Source: an uncultured Bdellovibrionales bacterium
GTDB lineage: Bacteria; Bdellovibrionota_C; UBA2361; SZUA-149; CAYOZL01
Reading direction: 5' to 3'
Length of the DNA: 62,035 nt
Assembly (NCBI GenBank): GCA_964408435.1
Contig: CAYOZL010000006.1
Span: 1 to 62,035, forward strand
Shown here: positions 1 to 45,656 of the stretch, piece by piece
Position numbering within the stretch: the first letter of the stretch is position 1
Layout of the letters: each line of letters opens with the position of its first letter
The notes under the pieces: model-generated
Told to the model about the DNA's origin: nothing
The model's database searches: none
Seen by the model: only the letters and a program-made list of their open reading frames with translations
Program-made: the position numbers and the translations under genes

Positions 1-24
1 TAGTCTTAGTCTTAGTCTTAGTCT
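1..24. repeat. Perfect hexanucleotide tandem repeat (TAGTCT)x4, truncated by the window edge
   Basis: Read directly: TAGTCT TAGTCT TAGTCT TAGTCT then TAAGCC. The last unit overlaps the pilU stop codon (complement of 24-26). Same unit family as the array at 44401-44585. Confidence 0.9.
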
Positions 25-1181
25 TAAGCCTTACTTAAGGTTATGCTAGGATTTTTACCTAGCACAGACTTTTCTTTCTTCTCATCCCCAAAAGCATCAG
101 GCACTTCACTAACACCTTTTTCTTCCGCAAGCTTGATTTTTAACCTTAAGTTGTTTGCGCTATCTGCATATTTAATTGCAGTATCTTGAGAGATTTTTCC
201 ATCTGCGTATAGTTCAAAAAGGTTCATATCAAAAGTTTGCATTCCAGTAATTGCACCTTTTTTCATAGCTTCTTTTATATCTTTTATCTCACCCTTAAGA
301 ATTAAATCTTTAATTCTCGGAGAACCAAGCATTACTTCTACTGCAGGAACTCTTGCTCCATTTGTTGCAGGAACTAATCTTTGTCCAACAATCCCCCTAA
401 GGTTTAAGCTAAGTTGCATGTAAATTTGTTTGTGTCTTTCAGATGGAAAAAAGTTCATTACTCGCTCAATTGCTTGGTTTGCATTATTAGCGTGTAGAGT
501 TGCAAGACATAAATGACCAGTTTCTGCGAAATTAATTGCAGCTTCCATGGTTTCTAAATCTCTAATCTCTCCAATTAGAATTACATCTGGAGCTTGTCTA
601 AGAGCATTTTTTAATGCGTCGCTGTATGTATCAGTATCCATTCCTACTTCTCTTTGAGTAACGATTGATTTCTTATGAGGATGTATGAATTCAATAGGAT
701 CTTCTACTGTTACAATATGACCAGCTTGATTATTGTTTCTGTAATTAATCATTGCAGCTAGTGATGTAGATTTACCTGAACCTGTTGCTCCAACAAATAA
801 TACTAAACCGTTTTTGGCCATTGATAATTGTGAAAGAATATCAGGTAAGTTCAAGCCATCTAATGTTGGAATAGAGGTCTTAATTCTTCTAATAACCATT
901 CCTACTGCATCTCTTTGTTGAAAAATATTTACTCTGTATCTTCCTAAGCCTTCAACTTTAAGAGCGAGGTTTTGTTCTTTCTTATCACTAAACTGAGCTT
1001 GTTGTTTATCATTCATTAAACTGTAAGCTAATTGATGAGTAGTTTCTTCGTTAAGATTATTTTTTCCAGCAGGTCTAACTACTCCGTTAATTCTATAACA
1101 AGGAGGGCTGTCAACTGTAATGTATAAATCCGATGCATCGTGTTGATTCATTACGGTAAGTAATTTTTTTATATCAGCCAT
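24..1181 (-). CDS. pilU: Type IV pilus ATPase PilU (PilT-family twitching-motility ATPase)
   Basis: 385-aa ORF with Walker A GATGSGKST, TVEDPIEF and GHLCLATLHANNANQA. Global resemblance to PilU. Its ATG overlaps the pilT stop by 1 nt (TAATG). Confidence 0.85.
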   Translation of the reverse strand: MADIKKLLTVMNQHDASDLYITVDSPPCYRINGVVRPAGKNNLNEETTHQLAYSLMNDKQQAQFSDKKEQNLALKVEGLGRYRVNIFQQRDAVGMVIRRIKTSIPTLDGLNLPDILSQLSMAKNGLVLFVGATGSGKSTSLAAMINYRNNNQAGHIVTVEDPIEFIHPHKKSIVTQREVGMDTDTYSDALKNALRQAPDVILIGEIRDLETMEAAINFAETGHLCLATLHANNANQAIERVMNFFPSERHKQIYMQLSLNLRGIVGQRLVPATNGARVPAVEVMLGSPRIKDLILKGEIKDIKEAMKKGAITGMQTFDMNLFELYADGKISQDTAIKYADSANNLRLKIKLAEEKGVSEVPDAFGDEKKEKSVLGKNPSITLSKA

Positions 1182-16360: not shown

Positions 16361-17125
16361 ATGTTTATTAAAAAAATATTAACCAGCTTTTTTTCAGTAC
16401 TAGCTCTTTTTGCTTTTACTGCTACTCAAGCTAACGCAATTACAATTGACCCTGCTTTTTTAATCTTTAATTTTGATAATCCTAATGTTGGAGATGATCA
16501 AGATTTAGCTGTTAGGTTTGGTTTTAACAGAGATGGTACTGGTGGCATAGACTTTGAATTAAATTTAAATGAAGAAGCTGGCACAGCATCTATATTCTTT
16601 GATGATCTTGGTGGTAGAATTTTCGCCGCTGATGACTTAGGTAGAGAAAATAGCTTAGCAGAAGTTTCTCTTGACCTTGCTTTTACTTGGACAGGTATTG
16701 TTCAAGAAGGTGATAGTCTTGTACTTAGAGAGCCTACTGGAGCTGGAGCTGTTGCAAGCTTATCTTCAGATCTTTTTGGTGACCAAGATGTTCAGTTTAC
16801 ATTGGGCGCTGCAGGCACAACTAACAGTGAGATATTTCCAGCTGATGCTGATAATCCAGTATTTTTCTATCTTGGGCCTGATGGAGTGCCAACATACACA
16901 GAAGGCGACTTGAATGGTTTTTCTACTTGGTTTGCGGCTAATACATTAGTTACTGCTAATGGTATAACTTATAATGTAAGAGGCGATTTACACGGTTCTT
17001 CGACTTTTAATGTTGGTGGGGCAAATTTTCCTACTGATACTACAGAAGTTCCTGAGCCTGCTACAATGTTGCTTCTTGGTTCTGGAATTTTAGGTGGAGC
17101 TCTTAGAAAAAAGAAGAAAGCATAG
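16361..17125 (+). CDS. PEP-CTERM sorting-domain secreted protein (paralog 1)
   Basis: 254 aa with an N-terminal signal peptide (…ATQANA/ITIDP). The C-terminus VPEPATMLLLGSGILGGALRKKKKA has the PEP motif, a TM helix and a basic tail. Confidence 0.85.
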   Translation: MFIKKILTSFFSVLALFAFTATQANAITIDPAFLIFNFDNPNVGDDQDLAVRFGFNRDGTGGIDFELNLNEEAGTASIFFDDLGGRIFAADDLGRENSLAEVSLDLAFTWTGIVQEGDSLVLREPTGAGAVASLSSDLFGDQDVQFTLGAAGTTNSEIFPADADNPVFFYLGPDGVPTYTEGDLNGFSTWFAANTLVTANGITYNVRGDLHGSSTFNVGGANFPTDTTEVPEPATMLLLGSGILGGALRKKKKA

Positions 17126-17351: not shown

Positions 17352-18071
17352 ATGAAAAATTTACTAACCAGTATTCTATCTGCTGCAGCATTTCTAGCTG
17401 TTGGGGTTTGTAATGCGAATGCTATAACTATTGATCCAGGTATAATGGGATTTCAGTTGAACTCAGCTGGGCCTGCTTCTGAAGATTATAGAATATATCT
17501 TGGTGAGCCTAGGGGGAATGCTTCAGTTGAGTATCTTACTTATGAGCTTAACTTTGATGCGGAAGCAGGAACTGCCTCTGTATTTTTTGATAATGTCTCT
17601 GGTGTAATATATGCAGGAGATGACTTCCGCGGGAATACTGCAGAAGCATTAGCTGATGTTGCTGTTAATTTAGCCTTTACTTGGACTGGTATAGAACAAG
17701 AAGGTGATGCGTTCGTATTAAGAGATCCAACAGGAGCTGGTGCGGTTGCTAATTTATCGTCTGATTTATTTGATTCAGACCTATCTTTTAGTTTGAGCCC
17801 TAGAGGCACTACTGGTGCAAACTACGATGCTGCAGCAGGAGATCCGGTATATTTTTATCTTGGACCTGATGGTAGAGACCTTTTTGCTGGTGATGGTGGT
17901 CTAAATTTATCTGCATGGATTGCGGCTGATGCACCTGTTATCATTAACGGAACAAGTTTTGCAGTTACTGGTGATTTTCATGGAAGAGCAGAAGTGCCTG
18001 AGCCTGCTACTATGTTACTTCTAGGTTCTGGAATACTAGGTGGAGCATTAAGAAAGAAGAAGAAAGCATAA
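17352..18071 (+). CDS. PEP-CTERM sorting-domain secreted protein (paralog 2)
   Basis: 239 aa with a signal peptide (…VCNANA/ITIDP). Shares blocks with paralog 1 (EAGTAS(I/V)FFD, LAFTWTGI.QEGD..VLR.PTGAGAVA.LSSDLF, FYLGPDG). The C-terminal 26 aa are identical, including PEP-CTERM. Confidence 0.85.
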   Translation: MKNLLTSILSAAAFLAVGVCNANAITIDPGIMGFQLNSAGPASEDYRIYLGEPRGNASVEYLTYELNFDAEAGTASVFFDNVSGVIYAGDDFRGNTAEALADVAVNLAFTWTGIEQEGDAFVLRDPTGAGAVANLSSDLFDSDLSFSLSPRGTTGANYDAAAGDPVYFYLGPDGRDLFAGDGGLNLSAWIAADAPVIINGTSFAVTGDFHGRAEVPEPATMLLLGSGILGGALRKKKKA

Positions 18072-18958: not shown

Positions 18959-21900
18959 TTATTTACCTAAGTTTTCTAATTGTTTATTAAGAACAAAAAT
19001 AGCGGGCAAGGTAATTTTATTTTTTTGTAGCTCATATAAGCTTTCTTTGTATCCCGTATATCCTTCTTTATGTTTTGAAAAGTATGTTTCAATTTTTGCC
19101 TTATTACTCTTGGCTTTTACTTTTGAAACTTCAAAAGTTATTTTTGCAATAGCTTTTTTCATCTCAGCTATGCATGTGCTCTTTGCTCCAATCTCCCAGC
19201 GGTCTGTTGCATCTAAGTTTTTAGCTTCTTGAGAGATTTTTCTAATTTGCAATGCTGAACTTAGCATCATGTAAAGCTTTGCTATATTAGTAGAGTCAAG
19301 CTTTTGTTTTTTAGAGATGTCAATTATGTCCAGGTAATCTGCAGAGTTTTTAATATTAGTAACTATAGAAGCTGTTTTCTTATTTACTCCAGCTTTTACA
19401 AGTTTTTTATATTCTTTTTCTACCTTACCTGCCTCTAGCTCTGGAATTAAATTATTACTTTGTTGAAATAGTTTAAGTAAATCTTTTTTATAGCTAGTAG
19501 CAAGTTTAGCGATATCAAAGTTTCTAGGGTTATTAGTAATAATCCATCTAATTGATAATTCGGTAGCTTCTTGAATTTGATTTAGTAGATCTAAGTGCTC
19601 TTTAGTAGAGCCAGCATTATCAATCTTGCTTAATTCTTGCTCAAGTTCAGTTACTTGAAGTATTTCTTCGACAGTTAAAAATGCTCTTATTACAGTTTCT
19701 TTACTTACTGAAAGTTCTTCGCAGGTTCTAACAATGAAGCTAGAGCCCATTCTTTCTACAAATAAGTTAGCAATAATTGTAGAAATAATTTCTTTTCTAA
19801 GTGGATGCCTAAGCACATCTTTTTTGAAATTTTTTGCGATCTCTTTAGGAAAGTAATTAATTAAATACTTCTCAGTACTTTTATCTTCAGAGATCTTTGT
19901 AGAGATTATAGAGTTGTAAACGGCTATTTTAGTGTGAGCAACTAATACGCATAATTCTGGCCTAGTTAGTCCAGCCTTCTTATCTCCTCTACTAGCAAGA
20001 GCCTCATCATCTGGTAAGTCATTTTCATTTCTATTTAATAAGCCTTCATTCTCCAGCATATTGAGTAAGCTACGATAGTAACGCAGATGCTTTCTGCTTC
20101 TTCTTACTGCTAAGCTTATTAGTTGAGATTGTAATCTGTTGTGGTTAAGAACCTTATCGCAAACTTCAAGAGCACATTTTTCTAAAAGTTTATTTCTTTT
20201 ATCTAGGCTAAGTTTTTTATTTTTTACTAGGGACTGAAAAAGTATTTTTAAGTTAACTTCGTGATCCGATAAATCAACTCCTCCAGAGTTATCTACAGCA
20301 TCTGTGTTTACCTTTCCACCAATTCTAGAGTATTCAATTCTAGCTTTTTGAGTAAGACCTAAATTGCCTCCTTCTCCAATTACTCTAGCATGAGTTTCCT
20401 TAGAGTTGATTCTAACAGAGTCGTTACTTGGGTCTCCAACTTCATTTTCAAATGAGGCTTTAATGTAAGTTCCTATTCCTCCATTCCAAAGAAGATCTGC
20501 TGGTGCTTTAAGAATAATCTTGATTAAATCTTCACCATTGTATACTCCAGGCTCACAATTAAGAGATTTTGCAGCATCTGCATTAATCTTAATTTCTTTT
20601 GCTGCTCTTTGATATACTCCTCCACCTTTAGAGATTATTTTCTTACTATAATCTTTCCAGCTAGAATGTTTTAAATTAAATAATCTTTTTCTTTCTTTGA
20701 AAGATTTTTTAGAATTTGGATTTGGGTCTATAAAAATATTTACATGATTAAAAGCAGCAATGAGTTTAATATTGTCACTTAAAAGCATGCCGTTACCAAA
20801 AACGTCTCCTGCCATATCTCCAATGCCAGTAACAGTGAATTCTTCTTTGTCTATATCTAAGCCTATTTCTCTAAAATGCCTACAAGTTGTAACCCAGGCA
20901 CCCTTAGCTGTGATTCCATATTTTTTATGGTCATAACCATTAGAACCACCAGAAGCAAAAGCATCACCAAGCCAGAAATTAAAATCATGAATTGCAATAG
21001 AGTTAGCAATATCACTAAAAGTTGCAGTTCCTCTATCTGCGGCAACTACTAAGTAGGGATCGTCGATATCGTGTATTACCGTATTTTTTGGTCTTACTAT
21101 TTTACCATTAACTAAGTTATCACTTAGTTCAAGAAGAGATGTAATAAACTTTCTATAGCACTGCTCTACTTTTGCTCTAAGTGCGTCTCTACTTGTTGGT
21201 CTATTTTTAACAACAAAACCACCTTTAGCGCCTGTTGGTACGATAATGGAGTTTTTTGTAACTTGTGTTTTCATTAAACCAAGAACCTCTGTGCGAAAAT
21301 CCGCCACTCTATCACTCCATCTTAGTCCACCTCTTGCTACGTATCCGCCTCTAAGGTGCACTCCCTCGAATTCATCTGCACAAACAAATGTTTCAAAAAG
21401 AGGGCGAGGGGAAGGCATTTCAGTGATTTCAGAACATTTAATTTTAAAAGCAATTCTGTATTCGTCATGTCCTTGAAAAAAGTTTGTTCTAACAGCAGCT
21501 TCAAAAAAGTTAATTAAAGATCGAAGCGCCCTATCATAGGCAAGATTGGTAACTGTTTTTAAAAGTGTCAGGTATTTGTTTTTTATTTTTTTTAGATTTT
21601 TATCTCTATTCTTATTATTTGCTCCTTTATATGCACTAGGGTCAAATTTTTCTAAGAAGTAATCAATTGCAACTTTTGCTGCCGCAGGGTTTTGGTTTAG
21701 TGCATTTACTAAGGTTAGCTTAGAGCCAATTGCCTTTATTTGCCATAGGTATTGAAGAGCTGTTCTTAAAACAGCAATATTCTCACAACTTAGTTCGGCA
21801 GAAATTATAAGACTATTTAAAGAATCGTTATAGGCTTTATTTGATAATGCTAGTTTTAAATTATTTGATATTTTTTCTGGTAGGTTTGAATCTATTTCGT

Positions 21901-23665
21901 TGTTGCTAAGTTTAGCAACAACAGTAAAAGCGTATATAGTATATAGGTCTTTGGATGTGACAGTGGTAACAGTTTCTCTTTCTATTGAAAATCCGATGTT
22001 ATCTAGAAAAGGTATAATCTCACTTAGAGAAATAGTTTCTCCTCTTTTGTATATTATTAAATGAGTTTTCTTAAATCCAGAAACTACTCTAGAGATAGAA
22101 GAGATTTCAAATAAACTATCTTTATCTATCTTTAAGATATTTTTTATATCGTATACTGCTTCTTTGGAGCTTCTTACGGATTTATAGTCTTCAGGAAAAG
22201 CATTAGAGAAGGTATGAAAAATTTCTTCAGCTTTATCTTCTTCAAAGCTTTTATTTAATTCATCCAGTAATAACTCTTCCCAACTCTTACTTAAGTTATA
22301 TATTTTTTGCTCTAGTTTTTTAGAATCTTTAGCAGAGAATATCTTAGGAACTAAAAAACTAACACTACCTAGCTCAGAGTCTCCTTTAAAAGTATAAATT
22401 TCACATGAATTTTTCTCTACTTTAAGAAATTTCTCAATCTCTTCCTTAATTAAAGCGTTGTTCTCTCCAGAGATTCTGTCTTTAGGAAGTATTAATCTAA
22501 AACAAGTAAATCTATTTAATCGATCTTTGTATATATTAAGTTTTTGTAGACCACTTTTTTTCAGCTCATAAATTATCGAGAATTCTTCTCTTAATTGAGT
22601 TAAGGAAAGCTCAATGAAATCAAATTTTGGTATATCATCTGCAAAAGAAATTAATTCTTTATAGTTGTGAGTCTTTGGAGGCAGTTTTTCGAGTTCAGCA
22701 ATTTTATTAATTCTATATCTAACTAAAGGAACTTTACTTGAGTCTTCTACAAACCCTCTATAAGTAATTAGGCCTAAAAAGATTTGAAATTTATTTTTAT
22801 CAATTTTAACGCAAAAACAATCTACGTAAGAGTCTCTGTGGATTGGGCTTTTAAGGGAAAGTTTACTGTGTGAAAGTACGTGGTTTTCACTAAAGAGTTT
22901 AATATCTTCTTTAATTTCTTTATTGATTGATTTGGAGTAATCTTTAACTTTAAATATGCCTTTAGTGTTTTTTGATCCACCTCTAAGCGTATATTCGCAA
23001 CTTCCTAGGAAAACAAACCCTGGGTTAATTAACCATTTAATAAATTCCCCAGCTTCAGATTGTTCTAATTTATCAACTTTTTTGTATTTATTATTTAGTA
23101 TGTGGCTGCTAGCATTTTCTGCTTGTATCAGAATCTCAGGGAATTCTTCAGTAACTGTAAGTAGCGTTTTTAAAAGATTTGAAACTTCTTTTTTTAGATT
23201 TACTTTTTTATTTTTAAGATTAGTTTCAACGTATACTAAAGAAATATTTTTCTCAGCATCGGAGGAGGGTATAATCGGATGAAGTTTGAATTTTTCCTCT
23301 ATTCCTAGTTTCTCAAAAAGCATAGCTAATGAATCTACTACAAACGGTCTATCAAAGATGATTGTTTTAAGAATAGTATTGCCGTTTTTCTCAGTAGTTG
23401 TCTCTACTATGAAATCTTTCTCTGAGCTTATGAAGTCTAAGTATAGAACATAGGAGTCGTGTGCAAGCTTTGTTAACTTTTCAATTTCACAAGTCTTAAT
23501 AAACTTAGATGAAGCTCTTCTAAATAGAGTGCTAATGAAATCACTTGGATCCGTTTTCTTGCTTCGAGTATTTTTACTTTGGCGTTTATTTAGTTTTGAT
23601 AATTTCTTTTTAATATCGTTTAATTTAACGTTGTTTAGCTTTACTAAATTCTTTTTGGCAATCAT
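18959..23665 (-). CDS. gdhB: Large NAD-specific glutamate dehydrogenase (about 180-kDa class)
   Basis: 1568 aa. Catalytic region RGGLRWSDRVADFRTEVLGLMKTQVTKNSIIVPTGAKGGFV and GDMAGDVFGNGML are characteristic of the Bac_GDH family. Confidence 0.9.
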   Translation of the reverse strand: MIAKKNLVKLNNVKLNDIKKKLSKLNKRQSKNTRSKKTDPSDFISTLFRRASSKFIKTCEIEKLTKLAHDSYVLYLDFISSEKDFIVETTTEKNGNTILKTIIFDRPFVVDSLAMLFEKLGIEEKFKLHPIIPSSDAEKNISLVYVETNLKNKKVNLKKEVSNLLKTLLTVTEEFPEILIQAENASSHILNNKYKKVDKLEQSEAGEFIKWLINPGFVFLGSCEYTLRGGSKNTKGIFKVKDYSKSINKEIKEDIKLFSENHVLSHSKLSLKSPIHRDSYVDCFCVKIDKNKFQIFLGLITYRGFVEDSSKVPLVRYRINKIAELEKLPPKTHNYKELISFADDIPKFDFIELSLTQLREEFSIIYELKKSGLQKLNIYKDRLNRFTCFRLILPKDRISGENNALIKEEIEKFLKVEKNSCEIYTFKGDSELGSVSFLVPKIFSAKDSKKLEQKIYNLSKSWEELLLDELNKSFEEDKAEEIFHTFSNAFPEDYKSVRSSKEAVYDIKNILKIDKDSLFEISSISRVVSGFKKTHLIIYKRGETISLSEIIPFLDNIGFSIERETVTTVTSKDLYTIYAFTVVAKLSNNEIDSNLPEKISNNLKLALSNKAYNDSLNSLIISAELSCENIAVLRTALQYLWQIKAIGSKLTLVNALNQNPAAAKVAIDYFLEKFDPSAYKGANNKNRDKNLKKIKNKYLTLLKTVTNLAYDRALRSLINFFEAAVRTNFFQGHDEYRIAFKIKCSEITEMPSPRPLFETFVCADEFEGVHLRGGYVARGGLRWSDRVADFRTEVLGLMKTQVTKNSIIVPTGAKGGFVVKNRPTSRDALRAKVEQCYRKFITSLLELSDNLVNGKIVRPKNTVIHDIDDPYLVVAADRGTATFSDIANSIAIHDFNFWLGDAFASGGSNGYDHKKYGITAKGAWVTTCRHFREIGLDIDKEEFTVTGIGDMAGDVFGNGMLLSDNIKLIAAFNHVNIFIDPNPNSKKSFKERKRLFNLKHSSWKDYSKKIISKGGGVYQRAAKEIKINADAAKSLNCEPGVYNGEDLIKIILKAPADLLWNGGIGTYIKASFENEVGDPSNDSVRINSKETHARVIGEGGNLGLTQKARIEYSRIGGKVNTDAVDNSGGVDLSDHEVNLKILFQSLVKNKKLSLDKRNKLLEKCALEVCDKVLNHNRLQSQLISLAVRRSRKHLRYYRSLLNMLENEGLLNRNENDLPDDEALASRGDKKAGLTRPELCVLVAHTKIAVYNSIISTKISEDKSTEKYLINYFPKEIAKNFKKDVLRHPLRKEIISTIIANLFVERMGSSFIVRTCEELSVSKETVIRAFLTVEEILQVTELEQELSKIDNAGSTKEHLDLLNQIQEATELSIRWIITNNPRNFDIAKLATSYKKDLLKLFQQSNNLIPELEAGKVEKEYKKLVKAGVNKKTASIVTNIKNSADYLDIIDISKKQKLDSTNIAKLYMMLSSALQIRKISQEAKNLDATDRWEIGAKSTCIAEMKKAIAKITFEVSKVKAKSNKAKIETYFSKHKEGYTGYKESLYELQKNKITLPAIFVLNKQLENLGK

Positions 23666-44326: not shown

Positions 44327-44400
44327 ATAGTTAAGACCTTTTAGATTTAGAGCCAGATAATATAGTTAAGTTCGGGTAGTGGCAAGCTTCTGGCGCTAAT

Positions 44401-44451
44401 TCTTAGTCTTAGTCTTAATCTTAATCTTCGTCTTTTTCTTCGTCTTGGTCT
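44401..44451. repeat. Hexanucleotide array, left arm: 8.5 units of TCTTNN
   Basis: TCTTAG TCTTAG TCTTAA TCTTAA TCTTCG TCTTTT TCTTCG TCTTGG TCT. Confidence 0.9.
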
Positions 44452-44468
44452 AAAAAAATCAAGATTTC

Positions 44469-44585
44469 AGACTAGGATTAAGACTAGGACCAAGACGAAG
44501 ATCAGGACTAAGATTAGGACTAAGAAGTAAGACCAAGACCAAGATTAAGATCAAGACCAGGATTAGGGCTAAGATTTAGGACTGG
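44469..44585. repeat. Hexanucleotide array, right arm: about 19 units of the reverse-complement unit (NNAAGA / AGGAYT)
   Basis: AGACTA GGATTA AGACTA GGACCA AGACGA AGATCA GGACTA AGATTA GGACTA AGAAGT AAGACC AAGACC AAGATT AAGATC AAGACC AGGATT AGGGCT AAGATT TAGGAC. 44488-44501 is exactly complementary to 44437-44450. Confidence 0.9.
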
Positions 44586-44618: not shown

Positions 44619-45656
44619 ATGGCAGATAGTAAAAAAACAAATACTCTATTCATCGAAGTAACAGGCTCTGGTCTACCCGAAGTCGACGGCTTATTTGTTC
44701 CTTCAACTGCACCACCAAAAGAGTCTGAATCAGGAACACTCTCAAGTCTAGGATACTGGAATGGAAAAATGGCTTGGGACAGAGCTGATGGTAAATCTGC
44801 AAGGAGTCCATCAATCTCTTATTCTAATTCTTATAAGTCATGGAGAATCTCTAGACTAGATGGCCATTTAGCTTATGATTTCACTTGTGATGACGACTTG
44901 CCCCCAATTAAGGGTGATTGGCATGTTTACAAAAAGGGAGTAGCCCCTGCGCCAAAAGTAACTATTCATTATTGTGATCCTAGAAAGCCTTGTCCTAAGC
45001 CTAATGTCGTTTTTGTTTTAGGTGGTCCTGGAACAGGTAAGGGAACAATGTGCGAGCTCGCAGAAGTTCAACTCGGTTGGACCCATTTATCAATTGGAGA
45101 TTTGTTACGTAAAGAACGTGAGGCAGGTGGTAAGACTGCAGAGACAATTGAAGAGTATATAACTGCTGGGAAGTTAGTGCCTAATGAAATAACTGTTACT
45201 TTACTTGATTCCGCAATGGAGAAAATTATTAGAACAACTGGGAATAATAATTTTTTACTTGATGGCTTTCCACGTTCTTTAAAAAACATGGAAGGGTGGT
45301 ATGAAATTTTTGGTAAAGAAACCGAGCTACCTAAAATGCTTTATTTAGAATGTCCTCTCCCAGTGTTAGAACAACGTATTTTAGGTCGTGCAAAGTATTC
45401 TGGAAGAAGTGATGATAATTTAGAAAGTATGAAACTTCGTTTTGATACTTTTAAGTCTGAGACTGTGCCAACGGTCGATTTTTTTAAGAGCAAGAATAAA
45501 TGTGTAGAGATTGATACTAGTTCGGACCGAGAAACTGTATATGCAAAGGTGAAAAATTATTTATCAGAATATACAGATAAAGAATTAATCGACAAGCCAC
45601 TTAGTGAAAGAGCTGAGATTCTGCTCGGTTTAAAGCCTTATCCTAAGAAGTCCTAA
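44619..45656 (+). CDS. Eukaryote-type short adenylate kinase / UMP-CMP kinase fused to an unrecognised ~125-aa N-terminal domain
   Basis: 345 aa. The C-terminal ~215 aa carry KPNVVFVLGGPGTGKGT (P-loop), LSIGDLLR, LLDGFPR and GRSDDNLES with no LID insertion, which is the short AK1/UMP-CMPK type. The N-terminal 125 aa have no motif I can name. No Shine-Dalgarno sequence before the ATG. G+C is visibly above the neighbours. Confidence 0.75.
   Translation: MADSKKTNTLFIEVTGSGLPEVDGLFVPSTAPPKESESGTLSSLGYWNGKMAWDRADGKSARSPSISYSNSYKSWRISRLDGHLAYDFTCDDDLPPIKGDWHVYKKGVAPAPKVTIHYCDPRKPCPKPNVVFVLGGPGTGKGTMCELAEVQLGWTHLSIGDLLRKEREAGGKTAETIEEYITAGKLVPNEITVTLLDSAMEKIIRTTGNNNFLLDGFPRSLKNMEGWYEIFGKETELPKMLYLECPLPVLEQRILGRAKYSGRSDDNLESMKLRFDTFKSETVPTVDFFKSKNKCVEIDTSSDRETVYAKVKNYLSEYTDKELIDKPLSERAEILLGLKPYPKKS

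Follow-up and report, generated by a model that had tools for sequence, protein, structure and literature searches.

A three-part kinase gene in a Bdellovibrionales contig

The stretch of DNA analysed here (the window) comprises 62,035 nucleotides (nt) of contig CAYOZL010000006.1, from assembly GCA_964408435.1 of an uncultured Bdellovibrionales bacterium. It contains a gene for a kinase fusion, in which a nucleoside monophosphate (NMP) kinase domain, classed with the eukaryotic UMP/CMP kinases, is set between an N-terminal domain (N-domain) and a C-terminal extension (C-tail). The parts of this protein and their positions are collected in Table 1. A previous description made from the letters alone (the sequence-only reading) had singled out this open reading frame and four kinase motifs in it, and all of them are found in the sequence where it had placed them: KPNVVFVLGGPGTGKGT at residues 127-143, LSIGDLLR at 157-164, LLDGFPR at 213-219 and GRSDDNLES at 262-270. 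The linker between the N-domain and the first kinase strand is very short and invariant (DPR-x-x-CP-x-PN). An exact-sequence look-up of the window protein returned no record.

Table 1. Parts of the kinase fusion and their positions in the window
Feature	Position	Strand	Residues	Remarks
Coding sequence of the kinase fusion	44619..45656	+	345 plus stop	ATG start; from the open reading frame list and the sequence
N-terminal domain	44619..44999	+	1-127	All-beta, eight predicted strands; family-specific
Short-type NMP kinase domain	45003..45563	+	129-315	Eukaryotic UMP/CMP kinase class
P-loop GGPGTGKGT	45021..45047	+	135-143	Contains K141; aligned to Dictyostelium G13-T21, K19
R219-S-L-K-N223	45273..45287	+	219-223	NMP-site Arg, then Asn at the base-recognition position four residues on
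Short LID segment RILGRAKYSGRSDDN	45375..45419	+	253-267	R253, R257, R263, D265, D266; aligned to Dictyostelium R127-N141
C-terminal extension	45564..45653	+	316-345	Family-specific conserved tail

The kinase domain is of the eukaryotic UMP/CMP class

Pfam sees in the protein only the generic adenylate-kinase domain (ADK, residues 133-293, E = 7e-36). Its class was obtained from NCBIfam, where the best model is TIGR01359 (UMP-CMP kinase family), with 197.3 bits over residues 130-315. The AK1 model reaches 138 bits, 59 bits behind, and all bacterial adk models stay at or below 127 bits against cutoffs of 152-426 bits, so that the protein falls outside the long-type Adk families. Sequence searches of the PDB gave 157 bits for the Dictyostelium UMP/CMP kinase (1qf9), 153 for human CMPK1 (1tev) and 145 for yeast Ura6 (1uky), followed by AK1 at about 122 bits and bacterial short Adk at about 82-85 bits. 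Most long-type Adk chains score lower still, matching only before the LID, and some match in two stretches. The kinase domain aligns end to end with the 194-residue Dictyostelium enzyme, and residues 253-274 align without gaps to Dictyostelium residues 127-148, leaving a short LID that lacks the insertion of about 27 residues of long Adk. An AlphaFold model of the full-length protein has a mean pLDDT of 77.5, the kinase part being mostly at 84-95. Its top Foldseek match is the Dictyostelium structure 2ukd (E = 4e-18, TM score 0.89 on the target), and AK1 structures superpose on it nearly as well as UMP/CMP kinases. The best NCBIfam model, the PDB matches and the Foldseek result thus bear out the sequence-only reading in its assignment of a eukaryotic short-type kinase without LID insertion.

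The full catalytic set is present. K141, R164, R219, R257, R263, D265, D266 and R274 correspond to K19, R42, R93, R131, R137, D139, D140 and R148 of the Dictyostelium enzyme, and all eight are invariant in an alignment of 46 family members. The same alignment shows an invariant P-loop, save for position 139, and R253 is invariant together with the other LID residues listed in Table 1. R219 (human R96) is followed by N223, which corresponds to Dictyostelium N97 and human N100 and is also invariant. In human UMP-CMP kinase, Asn100 hydrogen-bonds the 4-amino group of cytosine and contributes to base specificity (PMC1950558), while AK1 has at this place Gln101, an AMP-binding residue (PMC8317388). 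As the catalytic residues are kept and Asn223 occupies the position of human Asn100, we read the domain as an active UMP/CMP kinase, with a specificity predicted from its sequence. It does not belong to the anti-phage or phage kinases, since it has no match in PADLOC and only weak generic kinase matches in PHROGs.

An orphan N-terminal domain and a conserved C-terminal tail

Residues 1-127 match no family in Pfam, NCBIfam, PADLOC or PHROGs. A Pfam scan of the domain in 26 members, with E values allowed up to 10, gave a best match of 0.046, which is at chance level. A HMMER search with these residues against 1.84 billion cluster representatives found only 73 matches, nearly all of them fragments or variants of the kinase-fusion family, and no distant relatives. 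P0181 and P0185 were rejected as homologues of the domain, being compositional matches to Ser/Thr-rich fn3/RGI-lyase or low-complexity repeats. AlphaFold, given 26 aligned bacterial and eukaryote-like copies, models the domain confidently as eight beta strands (pLDDT 88.3, pTM 0.82). For this model Foldseek returned no significant neighbour, the lowest E value being 0.64 in the PDB and 0.42 in BFVD, and MORN proteins appear among the noise at E values of 0.8 or higher. The sequence-only reading had been unable to assign the first ~125 residues, and they are indeed without a match in Pfam, the PDB and BFVD. The likeness it had seen to modules common in protist and algal proteins did not hold, and the domain is not of the MORN kind: according to the HMMER search, the domain is essentially confined to the kinase-fusion family.

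Conservation of the domain in the 46-member alignment equals that of the catalytic domain. Across bacterial and algal copies, 35 of its columns are invariant in the 26-sequence alignment, including E21, D23, N48, D54, R55, R62, Y68, R76, R79, D81, H83, Y86, Y104, K105 and four Trp. Many of the invariant residues are Arg, Lys, Asp and His, or Trp and Tyr, which suggests a specific ligand site.

The C-tail carries the conserved motif PL(T/S)E(R/K)(A/S)E-LLG(L/I)(R/K)P(Y/F/W)P, and PLTERAEILLGLRPYP is conserved in the final 30 residues of bacterial and algal members. E333, L335, L336 and G337 are invariant in bacteria. The tail is also present in the algal proteins P0221, P0230, P0213 and P0214 and in the second exon of locus L082. 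Canonical UMP/CMP kinases do not have it, the PDB enzymes ending at about residue 315 of our protein.

In the adenylate-kinase fold, the first (N-terminal) strand and the last (C-terminal) helix lie side by side. Because of this adjacency, a single composite surface on the kinase core, away from the lids, is probably built jointly by the N-domain and the C-tail. Such a surface would probably serve to bind some ligand or partner by which the kinase would be regulated or localised. As the invariant residues are rich in Arg/Lys and Trp/Tyr, our leading guess is an anionic ligand, possibly a nucleotide.

The domain is found without a kinase in one 807-residue low-complexity eukaryotic protein. Some eukaryote-like proteins have two tandem N-domains before the kinase, or long linkers, and in one bacterial-like open reading frame an S-adenosylmethionine-dependent (SAM) methyltransferase domain is fused upstream of the N-domain, possibly by read-through. 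These architectural variants were seen among P0213, P0214, P0216, P0136 and P0122.

The fusion is widespread in bacteria

At least 120 full-length homologues of 343-406 residues exist, and the best 120 database matches share 75-92% identity with the window protein. Gimesia, Thalassoglobus, Novipirellula, Rubripirellula, Verrucomicrobiales and 'Deltaproteobacteria' are named among them. The closest relatives thus form a large bacterial clade with the same architecture, an outcome that the sequence-only reading itself had named as speaking against its proposal. A one-genome-per-species collection of 185,579 species contains at least 238 stretches encoding a relative; this is a lower bound, since the scan was made by exact peptide words. 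The best 80 of these 238 loci show 73-80% identity and are spread over Planctomycetota, Verrucomicrobiota, Bdellovibrionales, Bradymonadales, Polyangiaceae, Halomonas/Vreelandella, Marinobacter, Pseudomonas, Cellvibrionaceae, Burkholderiaceae, Hyphomicrobiaceae, Micavibrio and Vicinamibacterales. The carriers include complete chromosomes of isolates, for instance those of Novipirellula, Stieleria and Marinobacter. The overall identity range of the three-part protein in bacteria is 73-92%.

Gene G+C tracks that of the flanks or host in all 80 loci, and G+C at third codon positions (GC3) runs from 0.26 in the window to 0.87. Synonymous sites are saturated, the proportion of differing synonymous sites (pS) being above 0.6 in 93% of pairs. 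The median proportion of differing non-synonymous sites (pN) is 0.14, and the ratio of non-synonymous to synonymous rates (dN/dS) is about 0.07 where measurable. The match of GC3 to the host, together with the saturation of synonymous sites, indicates old, host-adapted copies under strong constraint. One comparison stands apart: the kinase genes of L053 (a 'Phycisphaera' metagenome-assembled genome) and L056 (Stieleria magnilauensis) differ at only 13% of synonymous sites (see also L045). Such closeness between members of different classes points to a transfer of very recent date or, alternatively, to a contig placed in the wrong bin.

No gene neighbour is conserved across 81 loci. Those that recur are a sulfatase and two further families, all of them common Planctomycete genes, and PrfC in the case of Marinobacter. 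In the Marinobacter loci L052, L058, L065 and L067 the kinase and prfC stand two genes apart, which is also their distance in the window, and the rest of the neighbourhood is unshared; this common spacing is probably a coincidence. A viral vector was not found either, as there is no copy in IMG/VR and no defence or phage signal.

Comparison with PrfC gives a relative rate for the kinase. Between the window and four Marinobacter genomes, PrfC is 42% identical but the kinase 74-75%, while between the window and its syntenic relative, the independently assembled metagenome contig L087, PrfC is 88% and the kinase 83% identical. This contrast excludes a purely vertical origin from one shared ancestor of the bacteria. 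In the bacterial tree, class and phylum are partly reflected, and the window copy is placed beside a Bdellovibrionales copy. These observations are best accommodated by a limited number of transfers between phyla and vertical inheritance thereafter.

Eukaryotic members and the direction of transfer

Eukaryote-like members of the family were found by the search of representatives and by a second homology search started from P0130. They are 49-66% identical to the bacterial proteins in the kinase domain. Some are genuine eukaryotic genes. P0221 is TrST_g2498 of Triparma strigata; its gene lies among eukaryotic neighbours (LisH/FOP, peptidase S28) on a contig of 59 kb and is interrupted by an in-frame intron of 66 nt. 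P0230 is a Bolidomonas transcript (MMETSP1320) that carries the fusion. L082 contains a canonical, frame-shifting GT..AG intron of about 183 nt, and P0213 lies between WD40, XRCC1-like and giant leucine-rich repeat (LRR) genes.

For the kinase domain we built a neighbour-joining tree with bootstraps, taking AK1 as the root and including the UMP/CMP kinases of Dictyostelium, human and yeast. In it the family falls within the UMP/CMP kinases and is monophyletic in 99% of replicates. Bacteria form a single clade (100%), while the eukaryote-like set is monophyletic in only 1%. A tree of the full-length alignment likewise separates bacteria from eukaryotes with 100% support, and in it the nearest eukaryote-like relatives of the bacteria are the metagenomic group P0229 (66%), followed by the bolidophyte group. 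Eukaryote-like members also resemble canonical kinases more (median identity 0.47 vs 0.43 for bacteria), are more diverse in sequence and architecture, and in some cases keep GKGTQ. As the bacterial clade is nested among eukaryote-like sequences, which sit closer to canonical kinases and include genuine eukaryotic genomic copies, it is most parsimonious to assume that the complete fusion passed once from a eukaryote to bacteria. The inter-domain transfer proposed by the sequence-only reading therefore stands for the family, with its intron-bearing algal members and nested bacterial clade; as a private or recent event in this genome it does not.

If the full-length tree is given the eukaryote-like sequences as its root, Bacteriovorax-like sequences (P0239, P0227, P0222; 66% bootstrap) are the first of the bacteria to branch off. 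The window's own group as the next branch is unsupported (10%). With these bootstraps, we kept a predatory Bdellovibrionota-like lineage as first bacterial recipient as a weak hint and did not adopt it.

The locus in the window

The gene order MatE-PrfC-EttA-[kinase]-TauE is identical in the window and in contig L087. This excludes a chimeric join and shows vertical inheritance within the window's lineage; the mis-joined contaminant that the sequence-only reading had asked to exclude is contradicted by the presence of the gene at the same position in L087. Window PrfC is closest to Oligoflexia/Bdellovibrionota sequences (63-65%), and the window is an ordinary stretch of Gram-negative chromosome, with TopA, Mfd, LpxB, KdtA, MsbA-like, RelA/SpoT, PilT-like ATPases and PyrD. 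No Cmk or PyrH is encoded among its large open reading frames. In this lineage (Bdellovibrionota/Oligoflexia-like) the kinase is now an ordinary, vertically inherited chromosomal gene.

Several features of the locus had been taken as marks of foreign origin. The gene is richer in G+C than its neighbours, as described (0.382 vs a window gene mean of 0.331, standard deviation (sd) 0.032), but only mildly so: it stands 1.6 sd above the mean, four other window genes are as G+C-rich or nearly so, and its GC3 (0.26 vs 0.217, sd 0.032; +1.3 sd) is inside the host range. Codon positions one and two account for the excess, the second above all, a pattern to be expected when a constrained protein is encoded in an AT-rich genome. 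A Shine-Dalgarno (SD) sequence is indeed absent and the start context is aacacATGg. An SD-like core is found in 13 of the 42 large window open reading frames and is missing from the other 29, so this absence does not point to a foreign gene. With most genes of the genome lacking an SD, the Kozak-like start context is meaningless as well. A scan for sigma-70 promoters found none convincing on the + strand of the upstream spacer, and a terminator scan around the gene gave only terminator-like matches inside the coding sequence.

The adjacent hexamer array is also real. Directly upstream, in the EttA-kinase spacer (44396-44579), 17 matches to the unit occur where 0.1 would be expected, arranged as two opposed arrays of 6-nt units, CTTRRT at 44399-44451 and AAGAYY at 44468-44576, with arms of 50-60 nt that are 72-80% complementary. 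The unit is present as well at window positions 2-25 and, in a shorter form, in the syntenic spacer of L087 (5389-5412 and 5459-5476), and in none of the other 87 loci. It belongs to the intergenic DNA of the lineage and not to the kinase family, and possibly has a regulatory role for divergent promoters. A part of these arrays in the mobility of the gene was rejected, since they are confined to the window's lineage.

Elsewhere in the window, the adjacent genes at 16361-17125 and 17352-18071 encode PEP-CTERM-anchored proteins. They are the most G+C-rich genes thereabouts (0.378 and 0.411), and both have a clear SD, unlike most window genes. Tandem PilT/T2SSE-type ATPases of 385 and 351 residues (24-2236) adjoin the hexamer repeat at the window edge. 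A 1568-residue NAD-specific glutamate dehydrogenase of the large bacterial type is encoded at 18959-23665 (Bac_GDH_CD, E = 4.5e-221).

Discussion

The protein described here is an uncharacterised kinase of three parts, one of them an orphan domain; it is widespread, and its sequence is tightly conserved. We consider it likely that it is an active eukaryotic short-type UMP/CMP kinase serving as an extra NMP kinase, built as a fixed three-part protein, and that the fusion arose in eukaryotes, entered bacteria once and then spread. The gene product is predicted to be an ATP:UMP/CMP phosphotransferase, and thus an additional pyrimidine NMP kinase. The fusion would have arisen whole in eukaryotes, among which stramenopile algae carry it with introns. 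After a single entry into bacteria it would have moved between bacterial phyla, being kept since then under very strong purifying selection. The activity or location of the kinase may be governed by a ligand- or partner-binding module made of the N-domain and the C-tail. The kinase part of this scheme is well supported, and the role of the module is what we propose from its conservation. A more speculative possibility is that N-domain and C-tail are a new module sensing or processing a metabolite linked to algae, and that the fusion was caught once from a stramenopile and passed among at least six phyla. If this were true, the 75-80% identity held since capture would imply a strongly selected function in pyrimidine metabolism or signalling shared by algae and bacteria.

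Several points weigh against our preferred reading, that of a eukaryotic UMP/CMP kinase fusion acquired once by bacteria. The score against TIGR01359 is 10 bits short of the curated cutoff of 207.6 bits, and the protein is consequently filed as a divergent variant of the class and not as a canonical member. It has Met after the P-loop (GKGTM) where Gln (GKGTQ) is almost universal. The model of the N-domain depends on 26 sequences, residues 20-63 of the full-length model have a pLDDT below 50, and its lack of structural neighbours refers to two libraries, the PDB and BFVD. Organism names are available for two eukaryote-like sequences, introns or eukaryotic neighbours back three more groups, and the rest are metagenomic. 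Finally, the trees are neighbour-joining trees, in which support inside the eukaryote-like grade is weak (7-39%).

Other histories of the gene have to be weighed against this one. Its eukaryotic-type kinase domain, its G+C content 1.6 sd above the mean and its missing SD could indicate that this genome itself acquired the gene recently from a eukaryotic host, prey or neighbour. However, its nearest relatives are bacterial (75-92%, vs 49-66% for eukaryote-like sequences in the kinase domain), it lies inside the bacterial clade beside a Bdellovibrionales copy, its GC3 is host-like, 29 of 42 reading frames also lack an SD, and an independent relative has it at the same locus with kinase and PrfC diverged to 83% and 88%, so that we regard such an import as highly improbable. 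An assembly chimera, or a eukaryotic contaminant joined to a bacterial contig, has the eukaryote-type domain in its favour and nothing more. It can practically be discounted in view of the bacterial genes on both flanks, the identical gene order in L087, the host-like GC3 and the isolate chromosomes of other bacteria that carry the gene. Purely vertical descent of a very slowly evolving gene from a bacterial ancestor, lost on a massive scale and never transferred between phyla, would agree with a bacterial tree that partly follows class and phylum and with saturated synonymous sites. We find it hardly credible, since the kinase evolves slightly faster than PrfC within the lineage and yet is far more similar to that of Marinobacter, the carriers are sparse (at least 238 stretches among 185,579 species) and the bacterial clade is nested among eukaryotic sequences. 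The opposite direction of transfer deserves more attention: the fusion could have been born in bacteria and passed to stramenopile algae. Known bacterial sequences far outnumber the eukaryotic ones, branching order in the eukaryote-like grade is weakly supported, and transfers from bacteria to algae are generally common. In the rooted tree, however, bacteria are a single derived clade, while monophyly of the eukaryote-like set has 1% support. Eukaryote-like members are more similar to canonical kinases, some with GKGTQ, and more varied (tandem N-domains, long linkers, an N-domain without kinase), and the kinase class itself is eukaryotic. A bacterial birth of the fusion is therefore unlikely in our view.

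Two rival readings concern the function of the protein. Relatives are named 'adenylate kinase' in databases, Pfam gives only the generic ADK domain and AK1 structures superpose nearly equally well, all of which would suit an AK1-like adenylate kinase. The lead of the UMP/CMP kinases is nevertheless about 35 bits in searches of the PDB and 59 bits among NCBIfam models, the invariant Asn223 stands where AK1 has Gln101 and the human enzyme Asn100 (PMC8317388, PMC1950558), and the family branches within the UMP/CMP kinases when AK1 is the root; an adenylate kinase thus seems quite unlikely. The N-domain could also be a second catalytic domain, making the protein a bifunctional enzyme of pyrimidine salvage. 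It has unusually many invariant polar residues (E21, D23, D54, R55, R62, D81, H83, K105 and others), is conserved on a par with the kinase and occurs without it in a eukaryotic protein. On the other side, it resembles no enzyme family or fold in Pfam, the PDB or BFVD, all-beta domains of 120 residues are more often binding modules, and the tandem N-domains of some algal copies are more typical of such modules. A second catalytic activity is, then, conceivable and on balance improbable, and we retain the UMP/CMP kinase with a binding module.

To our knowledge, well-documented transfers from eukaryotes to bacteria are rare. The present one, with its subsequent spread, would span Planctomycetota, Verrucomicrobiota, Bdellovibrionota, Myxococcota-like groups, Alpha-, Beta- and Gammaproteobacteria and Acidobacteriota, with an unusually tight retention of the fusion afterwards. 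Its N-domain is confidently modelled, yet no curated library or solved structure explains it. In databases these proteins currently bear no other label than 'nucleoside monophosphate kinase' or 'adenylate kinase', and our literature searches on the family found nothing relevant. Some of the culturable carriers are genetically tractable (Gimesia, Marinobacter, Halomonas and Pseudomonas are culturable carriers), so the function can be tested directly. For annotation of this window, the kinase gene should be treated as an ordinary resident, neither a contamination nor a recent import.

Comparison with known kinases

The window protein shares the P-loop NMP kinase fold with the long-type bacterial Adk, whose LID insertion it lacks. 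Cmk and PyrH, which together with Adk ordinarily serve bacteria as nucleotide kinases, belong to other protein families. It has in common with cytosolic AK1 (1Z83, 3ADK) the short-type fold without LID insertion, and differs from it in score (122 bits for AK1 vs 157), in having Asn223 for Gln101 and in its extra domains. The closest solved enzymes are the eukaryotic UMP/CMP kinases, namely Dictyostelium UmpK (1QF9/2UKD), human CMPK1 (1TEV/7E9V) and yeast Ura6 (1UKY), to which residues 129-315 are 40-44% identical in a structure-based alignment. The P-loop, the short LID, the catalytic Arg/Asp set and the Asn at the base-recognition position are those of these enzymes. Unlike them, the window protein adds a beta domain of 127 residues and a tail of 30 residues, absent from all solved enzymes, has GKGTM for GKGTQ, scores 10 bits under the TIGR01359 cutoff and resides in a bacterium. 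The same three-part architecture, including the C-terminal LLGLRPWP tail, is found in Triparma strigata P0221 and Bolidomonas P0230, the nearest named eukaryotic relatives of the bacterial clade. These algal proteins differ from the bacterial ones in having AWRLARLDGHLAYTI for SWRI(S/C)RLDGHLAYD and KIVPV for KLVPN, in lacking the PCPKPN linker and, for Triparma, in the intron of the gene.

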